Positions 26,079-48,577 of a stretch of 64,000 nt of DNA are shown piece after piece. Position numbers and translations under genes: made by a program. The notes under the pieces were generated by a model. That model was given only the letters and a program-made list of their open reading frames with translations. It ran no database searches and was not told the origin of the DNA. The first letter of the stretch is position 1. Every line of letters begins with the position of its first letter. Source of the stretch: Acidimicrobiales bacterium (GTDB lineage Bacteria; Actinomycetota; Acidimicrobiia; Acidimicrobiales; RAAP-2). Where the stretch lies: assembly GCA_036490155.1 (NCBI GenBank), contig DASXEK010000040.1, forward strand, positions 8,463-72,462. Reading direction: 5' to 3'.

Positions 26079-27553
26079 GCGTTGTTCCCCATCGGCTCGC
26101 CAAGCCTTCCTGGCTGCGATTGCCTCGCCGCACCGCCCGGCTGCGGCTCACCGGTCTGTACAGCGTTCTCTTCCTCCTCTCAGGCGTCGCGTTAGTCGCG
26201 GTCACCTACGTCCTCTTTGAACGAGCGACTGAGTACAAGACTCCACCGTTGCCGAAGGTCCCTCATACTCCCTCGATCCAGGGTCTCCAGCTGTTACCTG
26301 ATTCGGCGGCAGGGAACGTCGTCCAGACTCTCCCGAAGCAGCAGCTGCTGTACCAGGCTCAGCAAGGGCTCTCGCAGGTGCAACATGAGCTCGCAACCGC
26401 GAAGCCCCCAGGGAATCTGATCCAGCCTCTCCCCTATGGGCTCGCACACGTCCAGAGCCAGCTGACGGCGGCTCAGAAGGAGCTGGCACAGGGCCAACGC
26501 CAACTGGCGAACGCGGTGCATCAGCTGCAACAGGTCGGTCCCGCCCAAGCCGCACAGCGCGCCGCCGACTCGCATCAGCTCCTCGTCAACTCGGGAATCG
26601 CTCTCGCCATCGTCGCGGTCCTCGCCCTCCTCGCTGGCTGGTTCATTGCCGGCAGGATGCTGCGACCCATCCGGACCATCACCCGCACGGCCCGAAGGAT
26701 CTCCTCGACCAACCTGCATGAGCGCCTGGCCCTCGGCGGCCCAGAGGACGAGCTCAAGGAACTCGGCGACACTCTCGATGACCTGTTTGGGCGGCTCGGC
26801 GCTGCGTTCGACGCGCAACGTCACTTCGTCGCCAACGCTTCCCATGAACTGCGTACCCCACTCACCGCCGAGCGCACCCTCTTACAAGTCGCGCTCGATG
26901 ACCCCGACACGACGGCGGCCGCGTGGCGGTCGACGGCCAAGGAGGTGCTCGCCTCGACCGACGAACAGGCCCACCTGATCGAAGCCCTCCTCACGCTCGC
27001 CAGTAGCGAGGGCGGGTTGGTGAGCTACGAACTAGTCGAACTCGACACCACTGTCACCCAGACCCTGGTCGACCTTCAACCTGAAATTGACCGACTGGGG
27101 ATCCACGTCGATGTGGTGACGTCACCCGCACCCCTCGAAGGGGATCCCCGGCTCGTCGAACGGCTCGTCGTGAACCTGCTCAGCAACGCGTTGCATCACA
27201 ATGTTGTCGGCGGCCGCGTCGAGGTCACGACTGGGATCACGGACGGGCAAGCGGTGCTGTCGGTAACCAACGGCGGACCACCCATCCAGGATGCTGAGAT
27301 CGACCGCCTCTTCCAGCCTTTCCAACGGCTCGAGACGCGCCGGGCGCACTACAAGGACGGGCACGGGCTCGGGCTCTCAATCGTCCGCGCCATCGCGACG
27401 GCACACGGCGCCACCATCACAGCGCGCCCGCTCCCAGATGGAGGTTTGTGGGTGAGCGTCCTCTTCGCGCAACCTGCGATCGCTGACGGACTCTCCGGAG
27501 AATCGCACGACGCCGACGGACGTCGCCTCAAGGTCGAGGTCGCGTCGCCGTGA
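26075..27553 (+). CDS. Sensor histidine kinase (HAMP-HisKA-HATPase_c)
   Basis: H-box FVANASHELRTPLT. N and G boxes NALHHN and GHGLGLSIV. ATGA overlap with the response regulator. Confidence 0.9.
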   Translation: MSVVPHRLAKPSWLRLPRRTARLRLTGLYSVLFLLSGVALVAVTYVLFERATEYKTPPLPKVPHTPSIQGLQLLPDSAAGNVVQTLPKQQLLYQAQQGLSQVQHELATAKPPGNLIQPLPYGLAHVQSQLTAAQKELAQGQRQLANAVHQLQQVGPAQAAQRAADSHQLLVNSGIALAIVAVLALLAGWFIAGRMLRPIRTITRTARRISSTNLHERLALGGPEDELKELGDTLDDLFGRLGAAFDAQRHFVANASHELRTPLTAERTLLQVALDDPDTTAAAWRSTAKEVLASTDEQAHLIEALLTLASSEGGLVSYELVELDTTVTQTLVDLQPEIDRLGIHVDVVTSPAPLEGDPRLVERLVVNLLSNALHHNVVGGRVEVTTGITDGQAVLSVTNGGPPIQDAEIDRLFQPFQRLETRRAHYKDGHGLGLSIVRAIATAHGATITARPLPDGGLWVSVLFAQPAIADGLSGESHDADGRRLKVEVASP

Positions 27554-33260: not shown

Positions 33261-33750
33261 AACCGACCCTCCCTCTCTTGTGTTCGGTTCGCCTTTCGGG
33301 GCGCTCCCTTCATATGGGCAGCTCAATGCTGCGTTTGGCCTCTACCCGTAGGTGACGGCTCGGAAACGGCTGGAACGAAACGACGAGGGCTGCCGACAGC
33401 TCGTCCGGAATCCGTCAACCGTTGAATTGAGAATCGAAGGAAAGGGACCGATGACGTCGAGTGCGGCTCGGGTCAACCGGCGGTGCGACCCGATACTTTG
33501 CGGTGATGACGCGGACCGCCGTACGACGCCGAACGACGACCCGTGCAACGGGCCTCGAGCTGGAACACCGGGTGGAGGTGAAGGTGTCTGAGTTCAGGAC
33601 ATAGCGGTATAAAACTGACAGACTCGGATTACACCTGAGGTCTCCGGAATGAGAAGGAGATCAGGCGACGGAGCAGGAGCTGGAGAGAGGCGCTCCTGGT
33701 CGTGGCGTTTCGATCCCCTCAGGTCACCTCACAATCTCTCTCCTTCCCCC

Positions 33751-33772
33751 TCGATAAAGACACGTAAAGACA
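33751..33772. repeat. 22-bp repeat TCGATAAAGACACGTAAAGACA (paired TAAAGAC heptamers), copy 1
   Basis: Identical to 37704-37725. Confidence 0.7.
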
Positions 33773-33964
33773 CGCCCGAACGGAACTGGAGCGTGGCGAT
33801 GGGCCGGTACCCACGTCCCATCGGCAGACTCTCGCAATGCGCAGTGATCAGAGCCCGTTCCTTGTTGACGACGATCACGTTCATCGGCGAGCGACCAGTC
33901 ATTTTCGACCCCTGTAGCGGCGATAGGTGGTGACCCGCCGAGAGAGCCCGGGGTGCTATTCTTA

Positions 33965-33982
33965 CTTACTCTTATAAGTAAG
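33965..33982. promoter_or_regulatory. AT-rich inverted repeat CTTACT-CTTATA-AGTAAG upstream of vapB
   Basis: Read directly from the sequence. It lies 12 nt upstream of the vapB ATG. Confidence 0.4.
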
Positions 33983-33993
33983 GATGATCCATT

Positions 33994-34242
33994 ATGGACA
34001 CGGCAGCCAAGGTCACCTCGAAGGGACAAGTCACAGTACCGAAGGCCGTGCGCGAGGCCCTCGGCATAAAAGAGGGCGACGCCGTCGTTTTCCGCGTCGA
34101 GGGCAACCGGGCGGTTCTTGCGAAGACGGCCGACTTTTTGTCGCTCGCTGGTTCGGTGAAAGTCCCAGCTGCCAGGCGCAACGCTGCCTGGGACGAGGTG
34201 ATCCGCAAGACTCATAAGGCGCGAGCGGCCAATCGCCGATGA
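33994..34242 (+). CDS. vapB: AbrB/SpoVT(MazE)-fold antitoxin
   Basis: KVTSKGQVTVPKAVREALGIKEGDAVVF swapped-hairpin motif. Confidence 0.8.
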   Translation: MDTAAKVTSKGQVTVPKAVREALGIKEGDAVVFRVEGNRAVLAKTADFLSLAGSVKVPAARRNAAWDEVIRKTHKARAANRR

Positions 34243-34646
34243 GCGCGTTCGTCGACACGAACATCCTGGTTCGCCACCTGACCGGGAACCCGCCAGACAT
34301 GGCGGCGCACGCCACCGCATATCTCAGCTCTGCCTCGGAGCTACTCCTGACTGATCTCATCGTCGCCGAGACCATTTACGTCCTCGAGTCGTTCTACAGG
34401 ACACCTCGCCCCCAGGTCGCCGAGGCCACGCGCTCTCTCATCGCGTTCGGCTCGATCATCACCGTGGACCCGGCCCTCTTGCTGCGAGCCGTCGAGGTTT
34501 ACGAAACCGACCGGTTGGACTTTGCCGAGGCCTACCTGGTCGCCTGCGCCGAGACCACCGGAGTCAATGCGATCGCTTCGTTTGACACATCGATCGACCG
34601 AATCAAGACCATCCAACGGGTCGATCCCGCTTCAGCGCCGATCTGA
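34239..34646 (+). CDS. vapC: PIN-domain toxin
   Basis: MSAFVDTNILVRHL N-terminal acidic motif and a later D..FAEAY. ATGA overlap with vapB. Confidence 0.85.
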   Translation: MSAFVDTNILVRHLTGNPPDMAAHATAYLSSASELLLTDLIVAETIYVLESFYRTPRPQVAEATRSLIAFGSIITVDPALLLRAVEVYETDRLDFAEAYLVACAETTGVNAIASFDTSIDRIKTIQRVDPASAPI

Positions 34647-34857
34647 TCCCCCAGGGCGCTTGTGTGGCTCAGGGCCCGTGCCCAGAGCCGTGGCCCTGAC
34701 CAGAATTCGGCCCTCCCAAGGCCTGGTCAAGCAAAACGTCACGGCTGAGACCGGCCAGGTTGCTCCTCCTAAGCATCTGAACAGCGCGGATCTGAACGGG
34801 TCCCTTGATTACTGAACCGTCGTTCAATAACATCGCAGGGGGCCATAGAGAACAGGG

Positions 34858-35265
34858 GTGGTGGAACTGAACAACAAAGAAGTAATTCGATCGGCCGTTG
34901 CCGCTGTGAACCGCGGTGACGTCGGGGGCTACCTAAAAAATTTCTCCCCGTCGTGCCTCAGATGGATCTCAGGATTCGATGAACCGATAGCCCTGACTGA
35001 CGTCGGTGATCATTTGCGCCAACTCATCGAGGCGTTCGATCCACTGCAGTTGGACGAGGAGCTCCTCATTGGAGACGACCGATTCATCTGTGCCCGCTGG
35101 CAGCTACGCGGCACCCAGGTGGGTGCGTTCATGGGCATCGCCTCAGGCGGCAGCAGCATCAATATTGCGACTTGCGAGATCTACGAGATCGTTGACGGGC
35201 TCGTCATCGAGTCATGGGTCTATCAAAACCCCGCTCAGATGTTTACGCAGATGGCGTCGGGATAG
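34858..35265 (+). CDS. SnoaL-like / ester cyclase family protein
   Basis: About 135 aa with the NTF2-like pattern (NKEVIRSAVAAVNRGDV ... ESWVYQN). Confidence 0.6.
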   Translation: MVELNNKEVIRSAVAAVNRGDVGGYLKNFSPSCLRWISGFDEPIALTDVGDHLRQLIEAFDPLQLDEELLIGDDRFICARWQLRGTQVGAFMGIASGGSSINIATCEIYEIVDGLVIESWVYQNPAQMFTQMASG

Positions 35266-35282
35266 AGAGCAGGCTCGCCAGC

Positions 35283-36500
35283 ATGACAGCAGAGATCCCA
35301 GGCACGTCGTTACTCGACCCCGACATCATCGACGATCCCTACCCCTTCTATTGTCGCTTGCAGAATGAGGCCCCCGTATGGCGGGTTCCGGGTACTGACG
35401 TCTTCGTCGTCAGTACGCACCGAATGGTCGCCGAAGCTGCCTCTCGAGTGGAGGACTTCTCCTCGAATATGCGGCACCTCCTCTACCGAGGAGAGACCGG
35501 ACTCCCTAATCGACTCTCCTTCGGCAATGCAGGCGCCGACGCCTTGGCCACTGCTGACCCTCCGACCCACAAGGTCCATCGCGATGTGGTGTTCTCCGAA
35601 CTGGTTTCCAAACGCATGGAAACGTTGGAACCGGACATCAGCGACCTGACCGAGAAGAGTGTTGGAGGAATCTCGGACGGCTCCATTGATTTCATGGCCG
35701 ACATTGGCAATGTCATTCCGATCAACGTCATGACCCGGCTCATCGGTTTTCGGGACGGCAATGCCCAGGAACTCTTCGAGGCAGCCGTCGATTCGACATC
35801 CATGTTGGGCGCAACGTTGAGCATGGTCGAGCTCGAACAGCACATTGTCCGCACTTTGGAGATCGAGACCTGGATTGGTCTGCAACTCGAGGGTGCGGCC
35901 GAAGACCCGAATGACGACATCCTTGGCGGGGTCGCCCGCGGTGTCGATCGTGGCGTCTTTACGCACCAAGAGGGCTGCGTTGTGTTGCACACCCTCTTGA
36001 GCGCCGGGGGAGAGTCGACCACCAGCTTGCTCGGAAATGCTGTGCGCATGTTGGCCGAGCGTCCAGAATTGCAGGACCGCCTCCGGAGTGCGCCTGAACT
36101 CGTCCCGGCCTTCATTGAGGAAGCATTGAGGCTCGAATCACCGTTCCGCTTCTTGTTGCGCACCACTGCTCATGACACCAGCCTGGGGGACATTGCCATT
36201 CCTGAGGATGCAACCGTCCTGTTGCTCTGGGGAGCCGCCAACCGCGATGCCGCGACGTTCGAGAACGCCGACGAGATCGTCCTGGACCGCAGAGTTCCCC
36301 GGCGGCACGTAGCTTTTGGACGGGGCATTCATCACTGCGTGGGGGCACCACTGGCTCGACTTGAGGCAAGAATTGTCCTCACCTCGTTCTTGAAACAGAC
36401 CAAATCGTTCACCTTGGATCTCGACAGCTCACCTCAGTGGGTCCAGAGCCTGATGATCAGGCGTCACAATCGCCTAGCCATCAAGGTCGCGAGATCGTGA
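35283..36500 (+). CDS. Cytochrome P450
   Basis: Heme-binding loop FGRGIHHCVGAPLA, EXXR (EEALRLES) and I-helix LLSAGGESTT. Confidence 0.9.
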   Translation: MTAEIPGTSLLDPDIIDDPYPFYCRLQNEAPVWRVPGTDVFVVSTHRMVAEAASRVEDFSSNMRHLLYRGETGLPNRLSFGNAGADALATADPPTHKVHRDVVFSELVSKRMETLEPDISDLTEKSVGGISDGSIDFMADIGNVIPINVMTRLIGFRDGNAQELFEAAVDSTSMLGATLSMVELEQHIVRTLEIETWIGLQLEGAAEDPNDDILGGVARGVDRGVFTHQEGCVVLHTLLSAGGESTTSLLGNAVRMLAERPELQDRLRSAPELVPAFIEEALRLESPFRFLLRTTAHDTSLGDIAIPEDATVLLLWGAANRDAATFENADEIVLDRRVPRRHVAFGRGIHHCVGAPLARLEARIVLTSFLKQTKSFTLDLDSSPQWVQSLMIRRHNRLAIKVARS

Positions 36501-37180
36501 GCTCGACGACCAAGACCAAACGGTCCTCGATTGCTCCAATGCCATCGGGTGACTTTCCCGTTGGAGACATACGAACTCGGCGTCGGGACGCCCGACGAGT
36601 ACAGAGTCAGGGAGACATTCTCGATGCCGCGGAGCGGGTGTTCGGTGAGGATGGCATCCACAACGGTGCCGTCCGACGCATTGCCGAGCTCTCTGGATTC
36701 TCTCCGGGCGCCATTTACCTGTTCTTTGAGAACAAGGCGGATTTGGTTACAAAGACGTTTGACCGACGCGGCAAGGAATGGAGCGACGCGATCGGCACAA
36801 TCGTTGAAAGCAACGCTCCCCCACTCGACAAGCTTCATGGGTTCATCGACTGGGTCATCACCTTCCTTGCTGAACATGCCGATTTTCGTCACCTCTTGAG
36901 CCAGGTGAGCCACGGATCCATCGTGGCCGGCTACAACCTTGCTCAGCCGTCCACCGACGAGGACCACTTCTCATCGATCATGATTGCCATTTCCAACGTG
37001 GTTGAAGAGGGTCAGATCCGGGGCGACATTCGGGACGGGGATCCCGGATCGCTGGCGCACCTCTTTTCGGTGCTCCTCAACGAGTACGCCCTTCTCGATC
37101 AGGCTCCAGGTGTCGGCAAACTTACCGAAGGGCAGTTTCACGCGTTCGTGGACGGTGCACTTCGGGGTGCTCCAACATGA
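36497..37180 (+). CDS. TetR-family transcriptional regulator
   Basis: ILDAAERVFGEDGIHNGAVRRIAELSGFSPGAIYLFFENKADL. The GTG overlaps the P450 stop (GTGA). Confidence 0.8.
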   Translation: MSSTTKTKRSSIAPMPSGDFPVGDIRTRRRDARRVQSQGDILDAAERVFGEDGIHNGAVRRIAELSGFSPGAIYLFFENKADLVTKTFDRRGKEWSDAIGTIVESNAPPLDKLHGFIDWVITFLAEHADFRHLLSQVSHGSIVAGYNLAQPSTDEDHFSSIMIAISNVVEEGQIRGDIRDGDPGSLAHLFSVLLNEYALLDQAPGVGKLTEGQFHAFVDGALRGAPT

Positions 37181-37482
37181 TCGCTACTGAACGTGGATAC
37201 CAACCGCAAGAACAGCTGAACGACGGTAACTATGTGACAGTCACGCTCATCCCGTCGAGAACGTCGATCACCGCCCGATAGCGCTGTTCCACCAGTTTGA
37301 GCTCCACCAACACGGACGGCCGCCTTCGGATGTGTCGACGACTGCGTCAACAGCGAAGAAGGTGGCAACCGCCACGTGGTGGACCCTCGCAGGCACGAAG
37401 TGTCAGGCAGGTACCGGAGCCAGTGTCGCCCAGGTACCGCTGTCAAGCATGAACCGGAATTTCACAGGCGCTTTTCTCGCCC

Positions 37483-37500
37483 ATAAAGACACGTAAAGAC
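37483..37500. repeat. Paired TAAAGAC heptamers (ATAAAGACACGTAAAGAC), copy 2
   Basis: 18/18 match to the core of the 22-bp repeat. Confidence 0.65.
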
Positions 37501-37558
37501 GCGTCGGAGAATCTGATCTTCTGGGGGGATCCCACTTTGGGCCTCTGAACTGGGCCTT

Positions 37559-37608
37559 TGGTGAAGGTGAAGGGACTCGAACCCTCGGCCTCTACATTGC
37601 GAAAGTAG
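37559..37608 (-). repeat. Displaced 3' half of a tRNA-Ala gene (anticodon arm to CCA): att remnant
   Basis: The reverse complement reads CTACT-TTCGCAA-TGTAG-AGGCC-GAGGG-TTCGAGT-CCCTT-CACCTTC-A-CCA. An 18-bp stretch (37586-37603) is identical to 48529-48546. The T-stem carries a compensatory double change relative to the full tRNA. Confidence 0.75.
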
Positions 37609-37703
37609 TTTTTCGGTCCCACTGACAAGGCTTTTCTCAGAAGAGCTCCTGGTAGAGCGTCCGTCACTCCCTCAACTCCCATCAGCTTCCCTCACGTTCC
37701 ATC

Positions 37704-37725
37704 TCGATAAAGACACGTAAAGACA
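37704..37725. repeat. 22-bp repeat TCGATAAAGACACGTAAAGACA, copy 3
   Basis: Identical to 33751-33772. Confidence 0.7.
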
Positions 37726-37913
37726 TGGCACCAAGAAGCCAGCCCCAGTCTCACCGGACCTCAATCCGTACCTGTTGCTCCCCGATGATGATCCGTCGAG
37801 GTTCCCAGTTTCAATAGTTGCGGGGGCACTGTCGCCTACCGAGCCGCCTGGACCTCGCTCGCGCCTTCGCCTGGGCCGGTGACAGTCGGCACTCACTCCG
37901 AACGTAAGTAGGA

Positions 37914-39050
37914 CTACGACTGCAGACGGGCGGCAGCCTCGTCGAGAGGGATCCGCTCCTGCTCGATGCGTCGCGGGAGACCATCGGCGGGCTGAGCGAC
38001 GGCGTGGTAAGCGTCTCGTTCCGCCGCAGTGAGATCCGGGAGCGCCTTCGGTGCACGGCGAGGGATCGTATCTCCGCTCGGGAAGGTATTCGTTCCCCAA
38101 GCTGCATACAGGTGGTAGGCGTCGAGGTCCATGAGGATGCTGGTGACCTCAAGCCCATCACGCCGGTACCCCGCGAGGATCTCGAAGCCCTCGGCATCGA
38201 TGTCACCCCAGTAGTAGAGACGCTGAGCCTGAGCGAGCCATGGGAACGCAGCGGCGGTCGCGCCACCGAACCCGTCACCTTCTACCGCGATCCCGCCGGG
38301 CACTTCCGGGAAGTGGATTGCCGTGTCCTTGTTCTCGACGATGATCACGACGGTGGGCCGGTAGGCGGGCGCCATCGTGTCGCCGACGCTTGCCGAGTCG
38401 TGGCGCCGTCCTCCGCCGGCGAGATGGTCGGGGTCGAGGTAGGTGAAGTGGACGCGTGCCGGGTGCCGTCGGGCCAGCTCGAGCGGCCGCCGGACGAGAG
38501 CCTCAACGGCAGGTCCGTGCGTGTTGAGCCACTTGGCGTGCACCCCCGGGACGGGCACCTCCCGAGGAGTCATGCCCGCAGCGTCATTGGTCTGGAACCA
38601 GGCGGCGACATCGAGGAGCAGCCCGAAGTCGAGGTCGCTGTAGCAGTCGGAGAGCCGAAGGACCGTCGGGTGGTCGCCGCAGTTCGGGAACCGTGTTTGG
38701 AGCTCGCCGATTCGGGTCTGATTGCGGGCGATGCGTTGAACCCATTCGGGTCCACAGACCGCTGCGGCTTGGCCGACGTCGGCGACCACGGCTGTGATCG
38801 GGAACTGTTGTGTGGTGCCGTGCACACGCCGATCCCGAGACTCGATGGCCACGTCGTGGCAGACGGCCCAGTTCCTGATCGATGTGGCTTGCCGAGACCA
38901 GGTCTTGAAGTCGGCTTCGAGCTCTCCCGACGATGGCTGGCCGAGCGGGACCCTGTATGGCCAGTTCATCTCCGCTCCACCTAGGTCGCGATGCCAACGT
39001 TCAGCGAGTCGCCGTTCGATGGTCGCCTCGACCTCAGCAACAGTCTTCAC
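37914..39050 (-). CDS. jetD: Wadjet JetD (N-terminal DUF3322-like plus C-terminal Toprim/DUF2220-like nuclease)
   Basis: YYWGDIDAEGFEILAGYRRDG Toprim-like acidic motif. GTGA overlap with the jetC stop. Confidence 0.8.
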   Translation of the reverse strand: MKTVAEVEATIERRLAERWHRDLGGAEMNWPYRVPLGQPSSGELEADFKTWSRQATSIRNWAVCHDVAIESRDRRVHGTTQQFPITAVVADVGQAAAVCGPEWVQRIARNQTRIGELQTRFPNCGDHPTVLRLSDCYSDLDFGLLLDVAAWFQTNDAAGMTPREVPVPGVHAKWLNTHGPAVEALVRRPLELARRHPARVHFTYLDPDHLAGGGRRHDSASVGDTMAPAYRPTVVIIVENKDTAIHFPEVPGGIAVEGDGFGGATAAAFPWLAQAQRLYYWGDIDAEGFEILAGYRRDGLEVTSILMDLDAYHLYAAWGTNTFPSGDTIPRRAPKALPDLTAAERDAYHAVAQPADGLPRRIEQERIPLDEAAARLQS

Positions 39051-42000
39051 GGAGCGTTGACGCCGGCTGCGGTCTGGTCGGTGATGTCGTCGACGCGTGC
39101 GTGACCAGTCGTCGGACTCTTCGTGACCACCAGGACCTGCTCGACATGTGGCTCGAGGGTGGTCACCTTATCGAACGGGGCGGCGACGACCAGCTGAAAC
39201 CCGAGGCCTTTCCATGCACAGACACCACGTCCTGCGAACTCCGAGTCGGCTTTGACGAAAGCTTCGTCGAGGAAGACCGGCGCGAACCGGGGGTGAGTTT
39301 TCGTTTCGTCGCCGAGCTGGAACCGCAGCGCGGATCCGACGATGAACGCAACAAGCTCTTGGGTTTCGCCACCGGACTTCTCCCCGAGCGACGTGTACTC
39401 GGCACGCACCGACCCCTCTTCAGTGATCACCGATGCGGACAGCTCAATGTGCTTGCGGACGTCGAGGTGGTAAGCGCGGCTCTTCTCGTCGGTCTTGCAA
39501 ATCCGACCCATGAACGCTTTGAGGCGGGTGAACTTCTCTTCGGCCTGGTCGAGGGAGAGCTCTCCGATTGCTCCCGACGACAGCTCCCGAAGCTCCTTGC
39601 GGAACTGGCTCTGGTCGTCGCGGGTCAGTTTGCGGAGGTCGATTCGGAGCCGGTCGTGGTGCGCACCGAACGGGAGTCTCTTCAGGATCTGGTTAACCGG
39701 GGCGAGACGGTCCTCGATGTCCTCGATCGCGTTGTCGAATTCGCCGTTGAGGGGCACGAGATCCTCACCGGTCCAGTCGGTGAGTTTGCGGATCCAGGCT
39801 TCGCGTCGTTCGTGAAGCCCGGACGCAGTTATCTCGTCACGGATCCGCAGATAGTCGGGGTGCGACTCGATGCTGATCCCGCGGTTCGGGTTCGGCCACT
39901 TCTCATCAAACCTCACGAAGATCTCCTCCAGCCGCGCTCTCGCGTTGTTGCCGTCCCGTTCACCTTGGCGCCGATCGGACGACAGCGCTCCGACGAGCCG
40001 GATGATCGCATCTTCAAAGGTGTCCGGGCTGTAGGCGGTACCGATACCTCCCACGGATTCGAACCGTTCAGCGAGCTTGGCTGCCTGTTCTTCGCTGCAG
40101 CTGTGCCCGCCAGTGGCGAGGGTAGATAGCTGCGTGTCGAGCTCAGTCTGGCGTTCGATCAGAAGACGATGCGCATCTTTGAGCTGTTTGATTGCGGCAC
40201 GGGCCTCGTAGCGCCGCTCTGTCGCGCCTTCGAGTGCTTCGCTTGCGTCGGTCCGTTCCTGTTCGAGCCGTTCGAGGTCGACGTTCGAGTCGAGGATCTC
40301 GGTCTTACGTTCGACAAGTTCGGCGATCCGTGTTCGGATAGTCTCGTGGTCGATGCTGGCCCAGTTGGTATCAGTCACGTACTGGTAGGCATCCCGCGTA
40401 GACAGCAACCATTGAGCTTGCCCGTTGATCTCTGAGAGCCGCGGTTCGAGGCCGGAGCGTTGCTCGCCGAGCTCTGCGAGTGCAGATTCGATCTCTTCTA
40501 AGCGGTCCTTGTTGTCGAACCCAATTATCGGCTGCTGGGAACCTCCATGGGCCCCGCTGCGACCATGACGGATCTGCCCTGCTCTGGTAACGCGACGTCC
40601 CGAACCGTCGAGTTCGTCGACGTTATCGACGCAGAGTGCGTCTCTGCCCGGTTCCGTGAGCCGTCGTTGGATCCATCCGGTGAACGGGTTGTCCTTGTAG
40701 ACGAGTTTCCCGGACAACATCGCTGCGCTCATCTCAGCGCGCACGAACGGTTCGAGGTCGACTCCTTCAAACGGGATACGTGTCTTCCAGCGCAGATCGT
40801 TGATCGCCCGTGATAGGCGGTTTCGATACCGGTCCTCAACGAGCATCACGCGGGCTACCGGGTTGAACACAACCTCGACAGCGGTCCGCCATCCTGCATG
40901 TTCGACGGGGACATCGATGAGTTCGGCGACGAACGGCAGCTCGTCGGGGTCGAGACCGGCAGCGGCCGCTGCTTCGAGGCGTTGCTGGTGCCAGAGGTGA
41001 GGCACACGACCCGCCCGCCCGTCGAGCGACTCACGTTCTTCGACCAGCGCAGCGATCTGGCCTTCGAGTTCCCAGATCTCACGCTGTATGCGAGAGCGCT
41101 TCGTATCGAGGTCCATCAGCGCGGCGCCGTAGCCGTTCGAGATGAACGCGACAGCAGCCGTCTTCGCCGCAACGAAGTCGACTTCGGTCTCGATGGTTGT
41201 ATCCAGGGACCCAGTCCGCGTTTCGAACGTGTCACGAGCCGAGACTGCTGCGTCACAGGCAACGCTGAGCTCGGCGATCGTCTCGTCCAGCTTTGTGAGC
41301 TCTGCGCCACCGGCTTCGGCGATCGCCTCCTCGTAGAGTCCGACGAGCTCCTTGTACTCGCCCTCGTCATCCTTGGCCGTCTGCTCGGCTACGGCTGCTG
41401 CGTCGCGGTCAAGGTCGTTCTGGCGGACTGCTCCGGAAACAAGGGATTGTTCGTGGGTAACGGACCAGTGCTTGCCTGGAGACTCGGCACGGTTAAGGCC
41501 ATACCCGTCGATAAGTGCAATCTCGGCGAGCGCTGACTGGTAGTCGTCACCCAAGCTGACAATCGGGGCGAGGATCGCTTCCTGGTCGGAGGCGTCGACC
41601 ATCTCCTGGTACGCGGTTTCGAGGTCCGCGAAGTGCTCGATGGCGGTGTCGGCCGCTGCGAACGTCGACGGGATTTCGAGAACCATCTGCTTGTAGAGGT
41701 CGTCAACGGCTGCGACAGGTTTACCGGCCTGGATGCGGGCCAGGAGCCGTAGGGCGCCCGACGGGTCCCCGTGTGATCCGATGCCGAGCCGGGTCTGCAA
41801 CGTTGCGGCGAACGCGTCGTAGGTATCGTGCACCTGTATCTGCGAGTACCGCGAGCGCAGCCCCTTCTTCTCAAACTTCTCTGCGGCGAGCGGCTCGAAC
41901 TCTTTCAGGTTGACCGTGCCCGAGATCGACCACATCCGTTTCGCGATGTCGGTGTCGCAGTCCGCTGAACGGGGCACGTAATAGAGCCTCCCGACGGTGA

Positions 42001-42406
42001 ACTGCTCGCCGACGCCGTCAGCGAACGTGACCGCGACCGCGCCCCAGGTTGCTATCTTGACGCCGCGGAGGGTGCGTTCAGTTGCCTCGCCATCGTCACG
42101 GACGTCGTCGAGTTTTCCGCGCAGGTAGGTGAGGAGGCTGCGTTGGGTGGCGCCGCGGGCGCGACCACGTGCTGCGTCGTTCGAGGCCCCGTTGAAGGGG
42201 GTATTCGAATCCATCATCAACGCTAAGTACGCGTCGAGGATCGTGCTCTTTCCGGTGCCGGAAGCTCCACTAAGAAGGGTCGTTCCGGTGGAGAACTCGA
42301 TCGCGTTCGGTCCGCTGAACCCACCCCAGTTGACGAGCTGCATCGACTGGGCCCGCCACTGGGTTTGCGCGAACTCGGTGCCGGCGAACGCTTCTTGCTG
42401 GCTCAC
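39047..42406 (-). CDS. jetC: Wadjet JetC, SMC/MukB-like ABC ATPase
   Basis: Walker A LLSGASGTGKST, a long helical middle, signature KSGGETQ and Walker B PVFLDEAF. GTG 42406 overlaps the jetB stop. Confidence 0.9.
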   Translation of the reverse strand: MSQQEAFAGTEFAQTQWRAQSMQLVNWGGFSGPNAIEFSTGTTLLSGASGTGKSTILDAYLALMMDSNTPFNGASNDAARGRARGATQRSLLTYLRGKLDDVRDDGEATERTLRGVKIATWGAVAVTFADGVGEQFTVGRLYYVPRSADCDTDIAKRMWSISGTVNLKEFEPLAAEKFEKKGLRSRYSQIQVHDTYDAFAATLQTRLGIGSHGDPSGALRLLARIQAGKPVAAVDDLYKQMVLEIPSTFAAADTAIEHFADLETAYQEMVDASDQEAILAPIVSLGDDYQSALAEIALIDGYGLNRAESPGKHWSVTHEQSLVSGAVRQNDLDRDAAAVAEQTAKDDEGEYKELVGLYEEAIAEAGGAELTKLDETIAELSVACDAAVSARDTFETRTGSLDTTIETEVDFVAAKTAAVAFISNGYGAALMDLDTKRSRIQREIWELEGQIAALVEERESLDGRAGRVPHLWHQQRLEAAAAAGLDPDELPFVAELIDVPVEHAGWRTAVEVVFNPVARVMLVEDRYRNRLSRAINDLRWKTRIPFEGVDLEPFVRAEMSAAMLSGKLVYKDNPFTGWIQRRLTEPGRDALCVDNVDELDGSGRRVTRAGQIRHGRSGAHGGSQQPIIGFDNKDRLEEIESALAELGEQRSGLEPRLSEINGQAQWLLSTRDAYQYVTDTNWASIDHETIRTRIAELVERKTEILDSNVDLERLEQERTDASEALEGATERRYEARAAIKQLKDAHRLLIERQTELDTQLSTLATGGHSCSEEQAAKLAERFESVGGIGTAYSPDTFEDAIIRLVGALSSDRRQGERDGNNARARLEEIFVRFDEKWPNPNRGISIESHPDYLRIRDEITASGLHERREAWIRKLTDWTGEDLVPLNGEFDNAIEDIEDRLAPVNQILKRLPFGAHHDRLRIDLRKLTRDDQSQFRKELRELSSGAIGELSLDQAEEKFTRLKAFMGRICKTDEKSRAYHLDVRKHIELSASVITEEGSVRAEYTSLGEKSGGETQELVAFIVGSALRFQLGDETKTHPRFAPVFLDEAFVKADSEFAGRGVCAWKGLGFQLVVAAPFDKVTTLEPHVEQVLVVTKSPTTGHARVDDITDQTAAGVNAP

Positions 42407-43200
42407 GCGGTACCCTCTGGACCTTCCGTGTTGCTGTGATCTTCCGTCTGACCGCTTTCGGTGTAGAGCCATTCGAGAAGCTCTTGGAGGCGTGCGAGCG
42501 GCATGAGCGAGTCGAGAACCGGGGAGATCGTGAAGCGGTCGTTGTCGGCGCTGCCGGAAAGGACTCCCATCGACGTCAGTGATTCGATCGCTGTCTCCGC
42601 CCGCTTCTGCGCGCCGTAGAGGTCCGTGTCATCGTCGGCTTTGAACTCAACGACGCGATCAACCATGTCTTCCCGGTCGACGAGGACCTGTCCGCTGTCT
42701 GCGGCGCGTTGCCGGTGGAGTCGTTCGCGCAAGTAGACGAGAAGGATGGTCTGTTCCCGGCTATAGGCCCGGTCGTGCAACAGGGTCGGGAAGTTCGGGC
42801 CACCGTTGTCCGGTAACGCTTGGCGTTTGTAGGCGACCTGCCCTTCGCGGTCGACATGAAGAGTGAGGTACAGGTCGTTGAGTCGCGCCCGGATCGCCGG
42901 CTGATGATCCATCAGCACCTGCCACAGCGGCGGCTTCTGCTCGTGGCTCAGGTAGTGGTTCTTCAACAGGTAGACGAGGCAGTCGCGCTGCTCTCGGGAC
43001 AGACCGCCTTCGTCGCCGGCAAACAATGCGACCGATGAGCTCTCGACCGTATCGTCGCAATCACTGCCTTCGCGTTCTTGCTCGCGAACACCGCCTCCTT
43101 CGACCGTCGTGGTGTCGTCGTCCCAGTGGCTGCCACATCTGCTGTTGTCATCTTGGACGTCGACCGCTGCGTCGTTGTTGCTGTCGTCGATGGTGGTCAT
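42403..43200 (-). CDS. jetB: Wadjet JetB (MksE/MukE-like, DUF4194-like)
   Basis: Size, position and the LVYLLKNHYLSHEQKPPLWQVL...RARLNDLYLTLHVDRE pattern. Acidic N-terminal tail of about 65 aa. ATGA overlap with the jetA stop. Confidence 0.75.
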   Translation of the reverse strand: MTTIDDSNNDAAVDVQDDNSRCGSHWDDDTTTVEGGGVREQEREGSDCDDTVESSSVALFAGDEGGLSREQRDCLVYLLKNHYLSHEQKPPLWQVLMDHQPAIRARLNDLYLTLHVDREGQVAYKRQALPDNGGPNFPTLLHDRAYSREQTILLVYLRERLHRQRAADSGQVLVDREDMVDRVVEFKADDDTDLYGAQKRAETAIESLTSMGVLSGSADNDRFTISPVLDSLMPLARLQELLEWLYTESGQTEDHSNTEGPEGTA

Positions 43201-44687
43201 CCGACTTCAACCTCGCTGATCTGGTCGACGCGTTCGGGGGTCAGGGTGACGCGGGGTATAGCGAACATACGGCGGGTCCCGTCGGTTCGGTGTGTTTCGA
43301 CCCGTTCGTGATCTTCGGCGCCAGCGAGTGCCGCGGCCCGGGCCAGCAAGTGGATGAGTCCGAGCACTTCGACGGGCCGTTTCGCGTCGATGTCCATTAG
43401 GTCGAAGACCGTGCCTGCGGTCAGTTCGGCGCCCGGGTCGGCGCCGGCGAGCGCTGATTGGAGCCGGGCGAGGACTGGTCCTCCTTGCCGGCGGAGATCG
43501 TCGAGCGATAGCGGTTCAGTATCGACCTCGGGCTGTTCGATGAGCGGTTCGGGCGGGAGATGGTCTGCGGGATCCCAGAACCGTTCCCGCACGTGCCGCA
43601 GTGCCGGTACTGATTCGGGAATGAGCTCGACACGACACGTGGTGCGCACCGGGGTGTTCGCCACCCAGCGAGGTAGTTCTTCGTGGAGTGCTTTGAACAC
43701 CGCGGAAAGCTCTCGTTCGCGGATTGCGTCACGGCTCACGATGTGCTCTTTGAGAGTGCGGGTCACCCGGGATCGTTGGCCAATCACGTCGGTGAGCCCT
43801 CGGCGGACCATGGCTACGGTTCCGAGGAACACCCGGAGATCCTCGGGTTGGAGAGCCTCGGTGAATGGGTGGGTGACGATGATGTCGAGGTCCGCTTTGA
43901 GCTGTTGGAGGAGCGCTTCGTCGCGGAGCAGCCCGAGTGCTCCTTCGAACGCTCGTCCTTCGGGTGTTGCGAAGAGGTTGCCGGACCGCTCCAGGTATTC
44001 GTCGATGACCTGACCGAGCGGACGGGTATCACCGCGGAAGTCATCAAGAATTTGTTCGCGCATCGAGCGGATGCCTTCTTCGACCCGCTTGAAGTCGCCG
44101 GGGAGCTGGCCAATGAGCTCCATCAGGTTGATGTAGCCCTCGAGCATCGATTCGACGGATGGGGGTGCGGGTTCGCCGCCGGCGAGTAGCCGGGTTCGCT
44201 CGGCAGTGAGCCGTTCGATTTCGGCGTCGATGCGCCTCACTCTCGATGCGACGTCGGGGCTCGCTTCGGTTGCTTGCCGCCGCACGGCTTCGACAATCAG
44301 GGTGAGACGCGATTCGGACAGGAGTATGCGTTCGCTGCTGAGGTCGGAGACGATGCGGAGCGCGTCTACGGCGGCTGCGGTCAGCTCGTACACCTCTTTC
44401 CCGCCGTCTTCGGCGGGGAGGCGTTGGAGCCATTTGCCGCGCATCCAGCGGATACAAAGGTCTCGTCCACTGCCTACGGGGGCGTCAATCCCGTTCTCAC
44501 GGTATGTGTCGACGAGCGCGCCGACCCGGACGTGGAGCTGGTCGGTGGGGATGGATCGGCGTTCGCTATCGAAGAGTGCTCGGAGTGCGGCGACCTGCAC
44601 GGCTGCGTACTTGCCGTGCAGCAGGCGTAGGGTGGGACGGTCGAACGCGTCCTCAACTACCCGCAGCCTGCCGATCTCGTCACTCAC
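43197..44687 (-). CDS. jetA: Wadjet JetA (MksF/MukF-like kleisin, DUF3375-like)
   Basis: PTLRLLHGKYAAVQVAALRALFD N-terminal pattern; first gene of the four-gene operon. GTG 44687 follows GGGAGA; the track ORF extends to 44786. Confidence 0.75.
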   Translation of the reverse strand: MSDEIGRLRVVEDAFDRPTLRLLHGKYAAVQVAALRALFDSERRSIPTDQLHVRVGALVDTYRENGIDAPVGSGRDLCIRWMRGKWLQRLPAEDGGKEVYELTAAAVDALRIVSDLSSERILLSESRLTLIVEAVRRQATEASPDVASRVRRIDAEIERLTAERTRLLAGGEPAPPSVESMLEGYINLMELIGQLPGDFKRVEEGIRSMREQILDDFRGDTRPLGQVIDEYLERSGNLFATPEGRAFEGALGLLRDEALLQQLKADLDIIVTHPFTEALQPEDLRVFLGTVAMVRRGLTDVIGQRSRVTRTLKEHIVSRDAIRERELSAVFKALHEELPRWVANTPVRTTCRVELIPESVPALRHVRERFWDPADHLPPEPLIEQPEVDTEPLSLDDLRRQGGPVLARLQSALAGADPGAELTAGTVFDLMDIDAKRPVEVLGLIHLLARAAALAGAEDHERVETHRTDGTRRMFAIPRVTLTPERVDQISEVEVG

Positions 44688-44915
44688 GTCACGATTCTCC
44701 CACCAAGGTGTGACTCTCGATTCCAAGGTTCGCACGCCGAACCGTGGGCCAACCCGTAGTTCCGAACGCCCTTGCCCTGCGACCACACGCCTGGCGACAG
44801 GTGGCCATCGCCATGGAGTCGTGACTCATTGACCTTCGGGCCCGCTCGCCTGCGTATTCGTCCCTGGTCATCGACCCTTGGTCCCCGTTCCGGGCGTCCA
44901 GCCGGAACTCCCTCA

Positions 44916-45023
44916 TCAGCCTTCGGCCGCCTGCCAGGCGTAGTGGGCGCCGATGGCGGTAACGATCCCGCCGAGGATGCGTCGGATGACGTCCTCGGGA
45001 AGCCGGGGTTGGATACGCCTCAT
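44916..45023 (-). pseudogene. Relic 3' end of a membrane-protein gene (35 codons, possibly TSUP/TauE-like tail)
   Basis: MRRIQPRLPEDVIRRILGGIVTAIGAHYAWQAAEG*, followed by the hairpin GTTCCGG-N8-CCGGAAC at 44887-44908. Confidence 0.4.
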
Positions 45024-45042
45024 CGGCGGCTACTGCGTAGCA

Positions 45043-45144
45043 CGCATCCAACCCCACCGGCCAGAGGAGACGATCCGACGGCTACTCGGGGCCATCGTTG
45101 CTGCCATTGGTGTGCGGTACGCCTATCTCGCCGGGCGGGGATAA
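45043..45144 (+). pseudogene. Second, inverted relic of the same gene tail
   Basis: RIQPHRPEETIRRLLGAIVAAIGVRYAYLAGRG*. 20 of 33 residues match the copy on the other strand. Confidence 0.4.
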
Positions 45145-45256
45145 TGCCACCAGCACTCACTGAACAGTTCGACGGAGTGATTCGCTAGATCACGAAGCCA
45201 CTCCAACTACCCGCAATTGCGCGCTGGTATGCGTCACGCGGCACACTCATGGTCCC

Positions 45257-46048
45257 TCAGTCGCGAGCCAACAAGTTCGCTGCCCGCAAGTGTCTTCTGA
45301 CGAGACGAACAACGTCATCAAAGCGTGGCGGATCCGAGAGGTGTTCCGGCATCTCCGTATCCCAGCGATTCTTGTATCGGCCCTGGCGATCCTCGAATCG
45401 ATCTCCGAAGGTAGCGGGGTCAATGCTCTTGGCTTCGCACTTTCGCTCGAACAGGGGACGAATCTCTCCGACGGAGAGTTCGAGGTCATCGACAAGTCGA
45501 AAGAGGTCGTACAGATCACGACATTGGACACGCTGGATAACGCAACGCAACTTCTCGGCACCGATTTCGGAGACCGGGTACACAGAAAAGGGTACTGGTT
45601 CCGGCAGGTCGTCCCAGACCGGAAGTACGCCCATCTGCGCAATGTCCTCGACGTACTCGTCCGTAGCGATGTCGAGCTTCGCCTCGCGTGGTTTGGATGA
45701 CTCCAAGGGGCCAATGAAGCTGATCCCTGGCTTGTTCCCGGAAGTGAGCCCGAGATGCGGGAATCCCGCATGATCTCGTGCGGCGGCAAGGACCTCCGCG
45801 ACGGATTCAACTGCGGCGTCAGCGGATCCGTCGAGGACGGTGAAGTCGAGGTCAGCGGAGTAGCGGTACTGACCGATGTGGACGAGACGAAGCGCAGTGC
45901 CACCTTTGAAGACAAGGCGTCCACCATCGTTCATGTTCGCCCGGTGCAGCTGCGCGACGATGTGAGCGAGGACATAATCGCGCTCCACGACAGACGCATC
46001 GACACCGTCGGCATCAGCACGACGAGTGATCTGGTGTCGAGTGAGCAC
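45257..46048 (-). CDS. abiEii: AbiEii/AbiGii-family nucleotidyltransferase toxin (type IV TA)
   Basis: LVFKGGTALRLV...YRYSADLDFTV motif. Confidence 0.8.
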   Translation of the reverse strand: MLTRHQITRRADADGVDASVVERDYVLAHIVAQLHRANMNDGGRLVFKGGTALRLVHIGQYRYSADLDFTVLDGSADAAVESVAEVLAAARDHAGFPHLGLTSGNKPGISFIGPLESSKPREAKLDIATDEYVEDIAQMGVLPVWDDLPEPVPFSVYPVSEIGAEKLRCVIQRVQCRDLYDLFRLVDDLELSVGEIRPLFERKCEAKSIDPATFGDRFEDRQGRYKNRWDTEMPEHLSDPPRFDDVVRLVRRHLRAANLLARD

Positions 46049-46051
46049 GGA

Positions 46052-46837
46052 TCAGTTGTCGATTACGGAGCGCACCTCGTCAATGGAAGCATTCCATTTG
46101 ACTCGAAACACGCCGTCGGACCACACGCTGCGCTCGTCACTTGGATCCAAGTGAATCACCGGTTGCCGTGGACCCACCTCTGGATTGAGGTGGAGCGGCA
46201 AATCGAGCGCGAGAGCTAGAGAGGCCAATCGACGCTCCCCGGCACGTCCACGATGTCCCAGCTCTCTGGCGAGCTGGCTGATCCGCAGTGGGTCCGCAAC
46301 GTTTGCGCCATTGGCAAGGGCCTCGGCGAGTCGATCAATGCCTCCGATGAGGTCGACTCGCATCGCCGACTCCAGCAGCGCCCTCTCCAGCGTCGAACGC
46401 CAGGAACGTTCGAAGACATCTGCTTCCAGATGGATCGTCTCTGGTCGTTCGATAATGACCTTCAAAGCACGGTTGCCGATATGGGAGATGCGAGTCTGCT
46501 GTTCGCACGCAACCATGACCGTTCGAACGGGATGACTGAGAAGTCCGAACCCCGACACGGCAGTCGCGTAGGCGATGCGGTGCTGCTTTCCCTCGAATGC
46601 CGCTCCGACGGCCAGCGCGAGGTCATCGGTGACGGCGGACGTCCCCAACGATCCGAGCGGTCGAATCGCGTAGTGACCGTGGGTGACACGATCCAAAAGG
46701 CCATTCTTGGCCAGGCGGCGTAGGGCGTTCGAGGTCGCGCCCCGAGAGCCTCCGAGGAGCTCTCTGGCTTCTTCGAAGGTGAATTCGTTCTGGCCATTGG
46801 CGACGAAGTTATCGATGAGATCGAGCTGGCGGGCCAT
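46052..46837 (-). CDS. abiEi: AbiEi-family antitoxin / transcriptional regulator
   Basis: N-terminal winged HTH (FTFEEARELLGGSRGATSNALRRLAKNGLLDRV). It lies immediately upstream of abiEii and has an AGGAGGA RBS. Confidence 0.7.
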   Translation of the reverse strand: MARQLDLIDNFVANGQNEFTFEEARELLGGSRGATSNALRRLAKNGLLDRVTHGHYAIRPLGSLGTSAVTDDLALAVGAAFEGKQHRIAYATAVSGFGLLSHPVRTVMVACEQQTRISHIGNRALKVIIERPETIHLEADVFERSWRSTLERALLESAMRVDLIGGIDRLAEALANGANVADPLRISQLARELGHRGRAGERRLASLALALDLPLHLNPEVGPRQPVIHLDPSDERSVWSDGVFRVKWNASIDEVRSVIDN

Positions 46838-46865
46838 CTGTCCTCCTGCTAGCTAGTATAGCGCA

Positions 46866-46932
46866 AATCCACCTTGAAGGTTGATATGTGCTGTATTGGG
46901 TGACATAGCCTTAATCCACCTAAACCGTTGAT
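46866..46932. promoter_or_regulatory. Two 20-bp operator-like repeats AATCCACCTTGAAGGTTGAT / AATCCACCTAAACCGTTGAT upstream of abiEi
   Basis: 46866-46885 and 46913-46932 are 16/20 identical. Each is an imperfect palindrome (ATCCACC...GGTTGAT). Confidence 0.5.
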
Positions 46933-46937
46933 TTACG

Positions 46938-48275
46938 CTATCTGGCCTCTACCCGGGGCGAGCCCGCGTCTCGACTGGTCCGACGAGCCTCTCGGAGCTG
47001 CTCGACTCGGGCGGCAGCACTGTCCTGGGCTCCTTCAAGCAGGTGGGCATACAGGCGCTTCGAGGTTGCAACGTCGGCATGACCCAAGATCAGCTGCACC
47101 TCAATATCGCTGGCCCCTGCCGCCCAGAGCAGCGCAGCCGCCGTGTGACGGAGATGATGAGGGGTCAGGCCTTTCAGCTTCAGAGAAGCCGCCACTGCGT
47201 CTGTCGTCGCTTCAGAACGGCTCATGCCCTCGGCCAAGAGACGTTTCCGCTCCCCCACTGCCCAACGGACGGCGGTCGCGCAGATGACCGGACGAAGGTG
47301 GCGGGAGAGGTAGCCGTTCCAGCGGAACCCCGCACCGTTCACGCTTGTCAAAAGCGGCGCATCCGACGGCGGCCTTGCTCTTCGATTCAGGTGTTCGCGT
47401 AAGAGCTCAGCCAGCTGAGGTCCGACCACCACCGCTCGATTCCGGCCACCCTTTGGCTTCTGGTTGCGGACCAATCGGCCTTCTACTTCAACGACAGGTT
47501 GGCGGACCCAAACCCGCTTGGCCGCGAGATCCACGTCGCCGACCACCATTCCCGCCACCTCGGAACGTCGACCCCCCGTTCCCAAGAGGAGTTCGAAAAC
47601 GAGGCGATCCTGACCCGAACCCAGTCTGTCTGACAGCATCTCGATGAACCGGAAGTCCGGTACGACGATCTCGCGCATCCGGTCCGACACCAAGTCCACT
47701 GACATGGAGGCCTTTGCGATCGGACTGACCTTGATGACATTCTCATCGGCCAGCCAATTGAAGAACGCCTTCACGACGCCCCAGTGCGTGTTGATCGTCA
47801 AAGGAGCGAGTCCTGCGACCTCCATGGAGTCGATGATCCCGGTGATGTCGCGCTGGGTGACAGTGTGCGGCAGTTGCTGACCAATCGTCGGTGTCCACCA
47901 CTTCGACCAGCAGGCCCGGTCACGCGCTGCCGTCGACTCCGCGCCTCCCCGCTTGTTATTGACCCGCACCCGCGACCGCCTGGCCCTCTTCGCCTCTTGC
48001 CAGCGACCGAACCACTCGTCGCAGTGCATTCCTCCAGTCGCCACGCTGGTCAGGCCCTCCCCTGCCAACTCCACCTCGTTCGCTGGCAGGCGATGAGTCA
48101 AGCGCCATGGCGCCTGCGCGTCGGCCGCCTCGCGCTCGCTTGCATAAGTGCCGTAGGTGACCTGACGTCCATCGATTGGCACTCGAAGACGCCATCGGCG
48201 ACTCGATGTTTGTGCGATGGTGCCGGCTCCGCTCAGGCCGCGCTGTCGTCGTTTTGCAGCCATCGTGAACAGCAT
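46938..48275 (-). CDS. int: Tyrosine recombinase / phage-type integrase
   Basis: GGRRSEVAGM (Arg box) and HHLRHTAAALLWAAG...LGHADVATSKRLYAH (H-x-x-R ... Y). Start probably Met at 48275 or 48263; the ORF extends to 48371. Confidence 0.9.
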   Translation of the reverse strand: MLFTMAAKRRQRGLSGAGTIAQTSSRRWRLRVPIDGRQVTYGTYASEREAADAQAPWRLTHRLPANEVELAGEGLTSVATGGMHCDEWFGRWQEAKRARRSRVRVNNKRGGAESTAARDRACWSKWWTPTIGQQLPHTVTQRDITGIIDSMEVAGLAPLTINTHWGVVKAFFNWLADENVIKVSPIAKASMSVDLVSDRMREIVVPDFRFIEMLSDRLGSGQDRLVFELLLGTGGRRSEVAGMVVGDVDLAAKRVWVRQPVVEVEGRLVRNQKPKGGRNRAVVVGPQLAELLREHLNRRARPPSDAPLLTSVNGAGFRWNGYLSRHLRPVICATAVRWAVGERKRLLAEGMSRSEATTDAVAASLKLKGLTPHHLRHTAAALLWAAGASDIEVQLILGHADVATSKRLYAHLLEGAQDSAAARVEQLREARRTSRDAGSPRVEAR

Positions 48276-48308: not shown

Positions 48309-48326
48309 TAAAGACCACTTAAAGAC
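48309..48326. repeat. Paired TAAAGAC heptamers (TAAAGACCACTTAAAGAC), copy 4, between int and the tRNA
   Basis: Same heptamer and orientation as the other three pairs, with 11-nt instead of 10-nt spacing. Confidence 0.55.
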
Positions 48327-48504
48327 CGGGGAAAGCGATCGGCTCGTGGGCTGCGCTGGTGGCACGCACACTGGTGCATGACCTGGCCTTATGCGATGTG
48401 CCTAGTCCCGGAGTGCGGGACCTCTACAAAGTCGCAGTAACGCTCAGGGGGCGCCATGTGACTTAGTCGGGAGACCACTCTTAGCCCGTTGACCTGGGCT
48501 TTCG

Positions 48505-48577
48505 TGGAGGTGATGGGATTCGAACCCACGGCCTCTACATTGCGAACGTAGCGCTCTACCAGCTGAGCTACACCCCC
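48505..48577 (-). tRNA. tRNA-Ala (anticodon CGC)
   Basis: The reverse complement folds as a cloverleaf: GGGGGTG-TA-GCTC-AGCTGGTA-GAGC-G-CTACG-TTCGCAA-TGTAG-AGGCC-GTGGG-TTCGAAT-CCCAT-CACCTCC-A. It has the G3:U70 Ala identity pair. CCA is not encoded. Confidence 0.9.

Follow-up and report, generated by a model that had tools for sequence, protein, structure and literature searches.

A stretch of 64,000 nucleotides from an uncultured Acidimicrobiales bacterium (contig DASXEK010000040.1, positions 8,463 to 72,462; hereafter the window) very probably carries, on its minus strand at positions 37914–44687, an intact and translationally coupled jetABCD operon that encodes a type I Wadjet system, the family also known as MksBEFG or EptABCD. 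Comparisons with related contigs support the placement of this operon as cargo of a 10.94-kb integrative island, which extends from approximately 37.6 to 48.55 kb and is integrated in the chromosome at the 3′ end of a tRNA-Ala(CGC) gene.

The jetABCD operon and its products

Four open reading frames (ORFs) follow one another on the minus strand, at 37914–39050, 39047–42472, 42403–43200 and 43197–44786. An earlier note, made from the letters of this stretch alone, had described four genes chained by ATGA/GTGA overlaps at 43197–43200, 42403–42406 and 39047–39050. Indeed, the junctions on the coding strand read ATGA at 43200–43197, GTGA at 42406–42403 and GTGA at 39050–39047. The order jetA-jetB-jetC-jetD, co-directional on one strand, is that of a type I Wadjet operon. 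Specifically, jetA (43197–44687, minus strand as for all four genes) encodes a kleisin-like subunit of the DUF3375 family with 496 amino acids (aa), and jetB (42403–43200) encodes a MukE-like KITE subunit of the DUF4194 family with 265 aa. These are followed by jetC (39047–42406), which encodes an SMC-like ABC ATPase of 1119 aa, and by jetD (37914–39050), whose product is a nuclease subunit of 378 aa that combines a DUF3322 arm/CAP domain with a Toprim domain.

The start sites of jetA and jetC given here are internal to the longest ORFs. For jetA, the start is most likely the GTG at 44687 rather than position 44786, from which a 529-aa protein would be read, because a GGGAG Shine-Dalgarno motif is located 9–13 nucleotides (nt) 5′ of this GTG, the JetA orthologues of two related loci (L008 and L010) are 496 aa long, and a 5-nt indel in L008 falls just 5′ of the GTG, where it would break the longer reading frame. 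The 5′ end of the operon would therefore lie approximately 100 nt inside coordinate 44786. Thus, the earlier proposal of a JetA-like kleisin of about 500 aa stands with respect to its identity, but not with respect to the start at 44786. For JetC, the previously proposed length of 1119 aa, with the GTG at 42406 as start, is preferred over the 1141 aa of the longest ORF (to 42472), since a 99%-identical database protein (P0001) is likewise 1119 aa long. The alignment to the JetC1 profile, which begins at profile position 16, agrees with this start.

Assignment of the four proteins to the JetA–D families was made with three independent libraries, namely Pfam, PADLOC and the chains of solved structures in the PDB. 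JetA matches Pfam DUF3375 (E = 6e-92, profile positions 3–474 of 474), PADLOC JetA1 (3e-149) and the PDB JetA chain 8dk1 (7e-14), and JetB matches Pfam DUF4194 (3e-35), PADLOC JetB1 (8e-71) and a PDB JetB chain (8e-9). JetC is matched by Pfam AAA_29 and SbcC_Walker_B and by PADLOC JetC1 (E = 0, 1182 bits) over positions 16–1116 of 1119, and its alignment to PDB 8as8 JetC (2e-48) spans residues 43–1118 of the 1141-aa ORF, arms included. JetD is matched by Pfam JetD_C (1e-35) and DUF3322 (2e-27), by PADLOC JetD1 (7e-91), and by the solved structures of MksG (8b7f, 2e-17) and JetD(E248A) (8q72, 7e-8). An NCBIfam search yielded no model matching JetA, JetB or JetD. Judged by the profile scores (Pfam 6e-92 to 1e-35, PADLOC 0 to 8e-71), chance resemblance to the Wadjet families is excluded. 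The profile comparison proposed in the earlier note, carried out with PADLOC and hidden Markov models, thus returned JetA–D matches for all four proteins, and the gene order and domain content that it had ascribed to the Wadjet/MksBEFG family agree with the PADLOC type I models, with Pfam, and with the PDB JetA–D and MksG chains.

The best PADLOC matches are all to type 1 models. Models of the other types score far more weakly (JetC2 9e-7, JetD3 1e-5), and on these grounds a type II or type III Wadjet was ruled out. JetB contains one DUF4194 stretch, at residues 78–235 of 265, and thus a single KITE, and the matches listed for it are JetB1 models. JetB of type II Wadjet, by comparison, is a tandem KITE protein (10.1101/2025.03.10.642339).

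The sequence motifs named in the earlier note were all located. In JetA, LLHGKYAAVQVAALRALFD begins at residue 55 of the 529-aa ORF. JetC carries the Walker A motif GASGTGKST at 47–55 (with lysine K53), the signature SGGETQ at 1011–1016 and the Walker B motif VFLDEAF at 1044–1050 (with D1047/E1048), which together with long arms and a hinge give it the predicted make-up of an SMC-like ABC ATPase. In JetD, the Toprim-like motif WGDIDAEGFEIL is located at 281–292, and residues E239, D283, D285, E363 and E365 are all present. Of the residues described for MksG (PMC10123090), E236 and D279, which bind metal, align with E239 and D283, and the glutamates E349 and E351 with E363 and E365, respectively. 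JetD is therefore predicted to join a DUF3322 arm/CAP domain to a Toprim domain that retains its metal-binding Glu and its D-x-D motif.

The JetB protein opens with a tail of approximately 65–77 residues that is probably disordered, and the first 65 residues include 19 D/E versus 3 K/R. Both the 265-aa length and the acidic tail of about 65 aa had been reported previously, and both are correct, but the description of this tail as unusual does not survive comparison with relatives. Net-acidic and poorly conserved N-terminal tails of approximately 41–80 residues are present in eight of nine related JetB proteins, although the acidic character is much weaker in some, and a conserved (A/S)LF-x-GD motif follows the tail in these related proteins. 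The exception (L003) has a 43-residue tail with 3 D/E versus 6 K/R, which is not acidic. E. coli JetB likewise opens with an acidic stretch. By these alignments, then, the tail is real but not unusual. In published work, a short N-terminal helix or motif of JetB is placed on the arm/CAP domain of JetD, and the remainder of the tail is flexible (10.1101/2025.03.10.642339, 10.1101/2023.11.03.565488).

By homology to the systems from E. coli GF4-3, P. aeruginosa PA14 and C. glutamicum, we infer that JetABCD of the window restricts plasmids and extrudes DNA loops. JetA (kleisin), JetB (a KITE dimer) and JetC (the SMC-like ATPase) would assemble into two paired motor units and extrude loops of DNA at the expense of ATP. 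On a small closed circle of up to ~100 kb, extrusion would run to completion, such that each motor is brought to a stall by the other. A JetD dimer would then be recruited to the stalled motors and activated, by way of the JetC head and of a short helix within the flexible N-terminal tail of JetB, and the JetD Toprim site (E239, D283, D285) would cut the DNA, such that plasmids fail to establish. The chromosome would be spared, its size being too great for full extrusion. This general scheme, including an upper size limit of ~100 kb and the sparing of linear DNA, has been reported for Wadjet elsewhere (10.1101/2022.10.04.510915; 10.1101/2023.11.03.565488).

A tRNA-integrated island and the relatives of its cargo

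The island has a GC content of 62.5%, compared with 67–70% in its flanks, and it resides in a chromosome assigned to Acidimicrobiales on the basis of a trehalose synthase (TreS) that is 93–97% identical to proteins of Acidimicrobiales metagenome-assembled genomes. Besides jetABCD it carries three genes, all on the minus strand. A tyrosine integrase (46938–48275; Pfam Phage_integrase 1e-19) has its likely start at the ATG at 48275, with the longest ORF reaching 48371, and its NCBIfam matches to Xer-like tyrosine recombinases are under the curated cut-offs. Between the integrase and jetA are abiEi (46052–46837), for an antitoxin and transcriptional regulator (Pfam AbiEi_4 5e-7, PADLOC AbiEi 1e-20), and abiEii (45257–46048), for a nucleotidyltransferase toxin (Pfam AbiEii 3.5e-27, PADLOC AbiEii 3e-55). 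These two genes are 3 nt apart and constitute an AbiE system, a type IV toxin-antitoxin or abortive-infection pair that is separate from Wadjet.

The boundaries of the island are marked by the tRNA gene that it occupies. The tRNA-Ala(CGC) gene at 48504–48577 (minus strand; ARAGORN; Rfam tRNA, 70.5 bits) lies beside the integrase gene, and its 3′ part (~48504–48551) forms the attL repeat and holds the island variant of the T-arm. At the distal end, attR (37560–37608, minus strand) is the native 3′ half of tRNA-Ala in displaced form, 96% identical to the corresponding halves in two related contigs (L013 and L014). An 18-nt core, CGGCCTCTACATTGCGAA, is identical between attL and attR (48529–48546 and 37586–37603, respectively), within a direct repeat of 83 nt (37526–37608 versus 48469–48551) that is 78% identical. 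The T-arm of the resident tRNA-Ala differs from those of the native tRNAs of relatives by compensatory A:T to T:A changes. This pattern is the footprint expected of an element that supplied the 3′ end of the tRNA from a copy of its own. Among Rfam models, the tRNA alone reached its gathering score in the window, and a tmRNA match on the minus strand at 37559–37673 (19.7 bits, gathering 47) corresponds to the displaced tRNA-Ala 3′ half and not to a tmRNA gene.

Unoccupied sites are seen in three related Acidimicrobiales contigs (L013–L015, obtained through the homologues P0248, P0256 and P0294). From the sulfite-reductase side, these contigs are collinear with the window at 82–86% DNA identity. 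Collinearity ends exactly at the tRNA 3′ end (~48504), and the genes beyond are unrelated. The stretch downstream of tRNA-Ala(CGC) is variable among relatives. In L013 and L014 it carries glyoxalase and metallo-beta-lactamase-fold genes, and when window positions 27400–48500 were compared, L013 (3050–5820) became collinear again only from ~27.4 kb. A metagenome scan with the 235-aa protein that flanks the tRNA gave two loci, neither of which extends to the tRNA, and an exact look-up of this protein and of the integrase found no database record. Integrase, displaced tRNA half, AbiE and empty sites agree with the earlier placement of Wadjet on a tRNA-integrated island next to AbiE; its claim that this mobility is notable does not hold, because Wadjet as cargo of islands and transposons is already published (PMC12629846, PMC8649781). 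The island may still be able to move.

Full-length jetABCD orthologues are present in L001, L006, L008, L009 and L010, and their surroundings indicate that the operon moves between different mobile elements as a cassette. This conclusion is drawn because the similarity to L008 (84% DNA identity) is confined to 37927–44843, that is, to jetABCD and ~150 nt upstream, and because the L008 copy lies beside conjugation genes. Its neighbors encode a TrwC relaxase, Prim-Pol, a TraG/VirD4-type coupling protein and a VirB4-like ATPase; CHAT, NERD and SAVED genes are located upstream. The operon of L010, at 76% identity, occupies a third context beside a tRNA-Leu and a HigAB-like pair. The window's integrase and AbiE were found in no other fetched locus. 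Relative to the L008 copy, the ratios of nonsynonymous to synonymous substitution rates (dN/dS) are 0.11 for JetA, 0.22 for JetB, 0.18 for JetC and 0.20 for JetD, with dS of ~0.5, such that all four jet genes are under purifying selection. At positions 1–23366 of L008 (a 54.7-kb contig, JGI 2140918006), an anti-plasmid system is thus carried by a conjugative element, which may be either a plasmid or an integrated element. Homologues of JetC are also plasmid-borne, mostly on very large plasmids.

Rival readings and known systems

Several observations weigh against the view that the locus is a working type I Wadjet on a mobile island. Similarity to the characterised systems is low, although significant nonetheless (JetC 2e-48, JetD 2e-17 to 7e-8). 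Moreover, JetD has a phenylalanine, Phe261 (window ~38268–38270), at the position of MksG Tyr258. This tyrosine is conserved in other actinobacterial homologues and contributes to cleavage, but it is not essential, and its equivalent is also absent from the JetD proteins of E. coli and P. aeruginosa (PMC10123090). A scan for sigma-70 promoters and terminators, which included the region upstream of jetA, found nothing above shuffle expectation. With respect to mobility, no excisionase (xis), relaxase or replication gene was found on the island, and the sole second copy of the island (L009, a separate 10.1-kb contig from sample SRR13021853 that is 99.7% identical across 37578–47655 and keeps every ORF) may come from the same population.

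If the missing excisionase and promoter are combined with the two changes in 49 nt that separate the displaced tRNA half from its native counterparts in L013 and L014, the insertion might be taken as old and the operon as an inactive relic that is no longer expressed or functional. We consider this very improbable, and a pseudogenised relic is rejected, given that the four ORFs are intact with all catalytic motifs present, translational coupling is kept, dN/dS values are 0.11–0.22, and the nearly identical copy from another sample retains every ORF. Even harder to credit is a role in chromosome organization, in which the locus would encode a condensin paralogue of the MukBEF/MksBEF type rather than a defence nuclease. 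JetC does have weak MukB N-terminal and SMC matches, and the three-subunit architecture is that of MukBEF. These matches are far under their curated cut-offs, however, as compared with the full-length JetC1 match at 1182 bits, while the fourth coupled gene encodes JetD/MksG in full length, its Toprim site intact, and the locus sits on an island that was gained by horizontal transfer and that related genomes lack. A MukBEF-like condensin is rejected on these grounds. A third alternative concerns the beneficiary rather than the machinery. Wadjet could serve the island by excluding rival plasmids and circular elements, with AbiE as an addiction module, such that the whole would be a selfish, 'armed' element and not a host defence locus. 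The island carries just an integrase and two conflict systems, the closest copy of the operon (L008) has a TrwC relaxase, a T4 coupling protein and Prim-Pol as neighbors, so that the cassette has moved between different mobile elements, and anti-plasmid systems on integrative elements are discussed in the literature. Opposed to this are the lack of transfer functions on the island and the fact that the molecular mechanism would be identical, so that sequence cannot separate a benefit to the host from a benefit to the element. We regard this possibility as the less likely of the two, and retain an intact type I Wadjet operon carried by an integrative island as our reading of the locus.

As judged from sequence comparison, the window jetABCD is a new and fairly divergent example of an ordinary type I Wadjet, and not something new in kind. 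We call it fairly divergent because the best match among GTDB representative genomes is 66% identical and the characterised systems match at the profile level only; specifically, a JetC scan of these genomes gave seven loci, and the host genome is not among them. The JetABCD system of E. coli GF4-3 (type I; PDB 8AS8, 8BFN, 8Q72) has the same four subunits in the same order, and all four proteins match. The Toprim glutamate that was mutated in 8Q72 (E248A) aligns with E239 of the window JetD, and the acidic N-terminal tail of JetB is shared, the window tail being ~20 residues longer. It differs in its Gram-negative source and in its low sequence similarity. The C. glutamicum MksBEFG system is, like that of the window, actinobacterial, and its MksG (8B7F) is the solved structure that JetD matches best. 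The two nucleases differ at the Tyr258/Phe261 position discussed above, and MksBEFG has been studied as a chromosomal system and is not described as island cargo. P. aeruginosa PA14 JetABCD (8DK1-3, 7TIL) provides the best structure match to JetA and also matches JetC (1e-46) and JetD (3e-5), but it is distant in sequence and comes from a host of another phylum.

Precedents for the genomic setting are also available. The PAPI-2-type islands of Pseudomonas, which are tRNA-integrated, hold mostly defence systems, to which often only integrases, transposases or conjugative-element proteins are added, and Wadjet is among their most common cargo (PMC12629846). Among the cargo listed for Tn7-like transposons is JetD (PMC8649781). 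Wadjet has been reported from ~42% of Actinobacteria, where defence systems are often located on mobile elements (PMC10482375). Compared with the PAPI-2-type and Tn7-like carriers, the window island belongs to another phylum, targets tRNA-Ala(CGC), has an unrelated integrase, and consists of exactly an integrase, AbiE and jetABCD. The locus thus offers a well-delimited case of Wadjet moving between mobile elements as a compact cassette in Acidimicrobiales, an actinobacterial lineage that is uncultured and little studied, with an integrase-only tRNA island in the window versus a conjugation-gene neighborhood in the close relative L008. The general understanding of Wadjet is otherwise unchanged.

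Repeats, hairpin and possible self-targeting

The region immediately upstream of jetA (44688–44843, minus strand) is conserved, with similarity to L008 reaching 44843, and is a candidate promoter/operator. Within the part shared with L008 is a palindrome, GGTTCG-N5-CGAACC, at 44727–44743. Farther upstream, the spacer between abiEii and jetA contains an imperfect inverted repeat (44936–45124), in which 82-nt arms (44936–45017 and 45043–45124) that are 71% complementary enclose a 25-nt loop, and whose predicted RNA fold has an energy of -106 kcal/mol (z = -3.8). Translation of either arm gives a small hydrophobic peptide, with 61% identity between the two. Coding by the arms is doubtful, however, because nucleotide identity exceeds amino-acid identity. 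The peptides gave no match in Pfam, and the hairpin gave none when compared with plasmids.

A second set of repeats is found at the island ends. The heptamer TAAAGAC occurs nine times in the 64-kb window, and eight of these occurrences form four same-strand tandem pairs with a spacing of 10–11 nt. One pair (48309–48326, plus strand; 48309/48320) is located near the attL end, 33–55 nt upstream of the ATG of the integrase gene, and another (37708–37724, plus strand; 37708/37718) lies within the island, ~100 nt from its attR end. The remaining two, at 37484–37500 (37484/37494) and 33755–33771 (33755/33765), flank a low-GC block described below. The pairs may be arm-type integrase binding sites, for which we consider them candidates. 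A search for the paired motif in IMG/VR returned one match, on a contig with 33% GC and no other similarity, and this was set aside as chance.

The low-GC block (~33400–37520, GC 59%) is without an integrase and is absent from L013–L015. Its genes encode VapB/VapC (33994–34646), a SnoaL-like protein (34858–35265), a cytochrome P450 (35214–36500) and a TetR regulator (36437–37180). A 57-nt segment at its left end (33716–33772) is 79% like the distal end of the island (37669–37725), and the block may be what is left of a related element that inserted earlier at this tRNA. When the left end of the block was searched for a second tRNA remnant, the match found was of 13–14 nt, no better than shuffles.

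The locus makes concrete one question, namely how an element that is small and excisable could harbor a system directed at small circular DNA. Once excised, the island would form a circle of 10.9 kb, which is within the reported target range of Wadjet, and the papers searched gave no account of self-targeting for Wadjet-carrying islands. If the island is still excisable, its circle would be of a size that its own Wadjet destroys, which would imply either an undescribed form of self-sparing or a lock-in strategy, and the integrase-less block could then be a cis-mobilised satellite. We offer this as a speculative and unlikely proposal. Self-sparing might operate, for example, through shut-off of the operon via the palindrome upstream of jetA, or through an integrase complex on the TAAAGAC pairs that shields the circle. 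Alternatively, in a lock-in arrangement, Wadjet would destroy excised copies while AbiE kills cells from which the island has been lost. Under the same proposal, the 33.4–37.5 kb block, bracketed as it is by the same repeats, would represent a satellite moved in cis by the same integrase.

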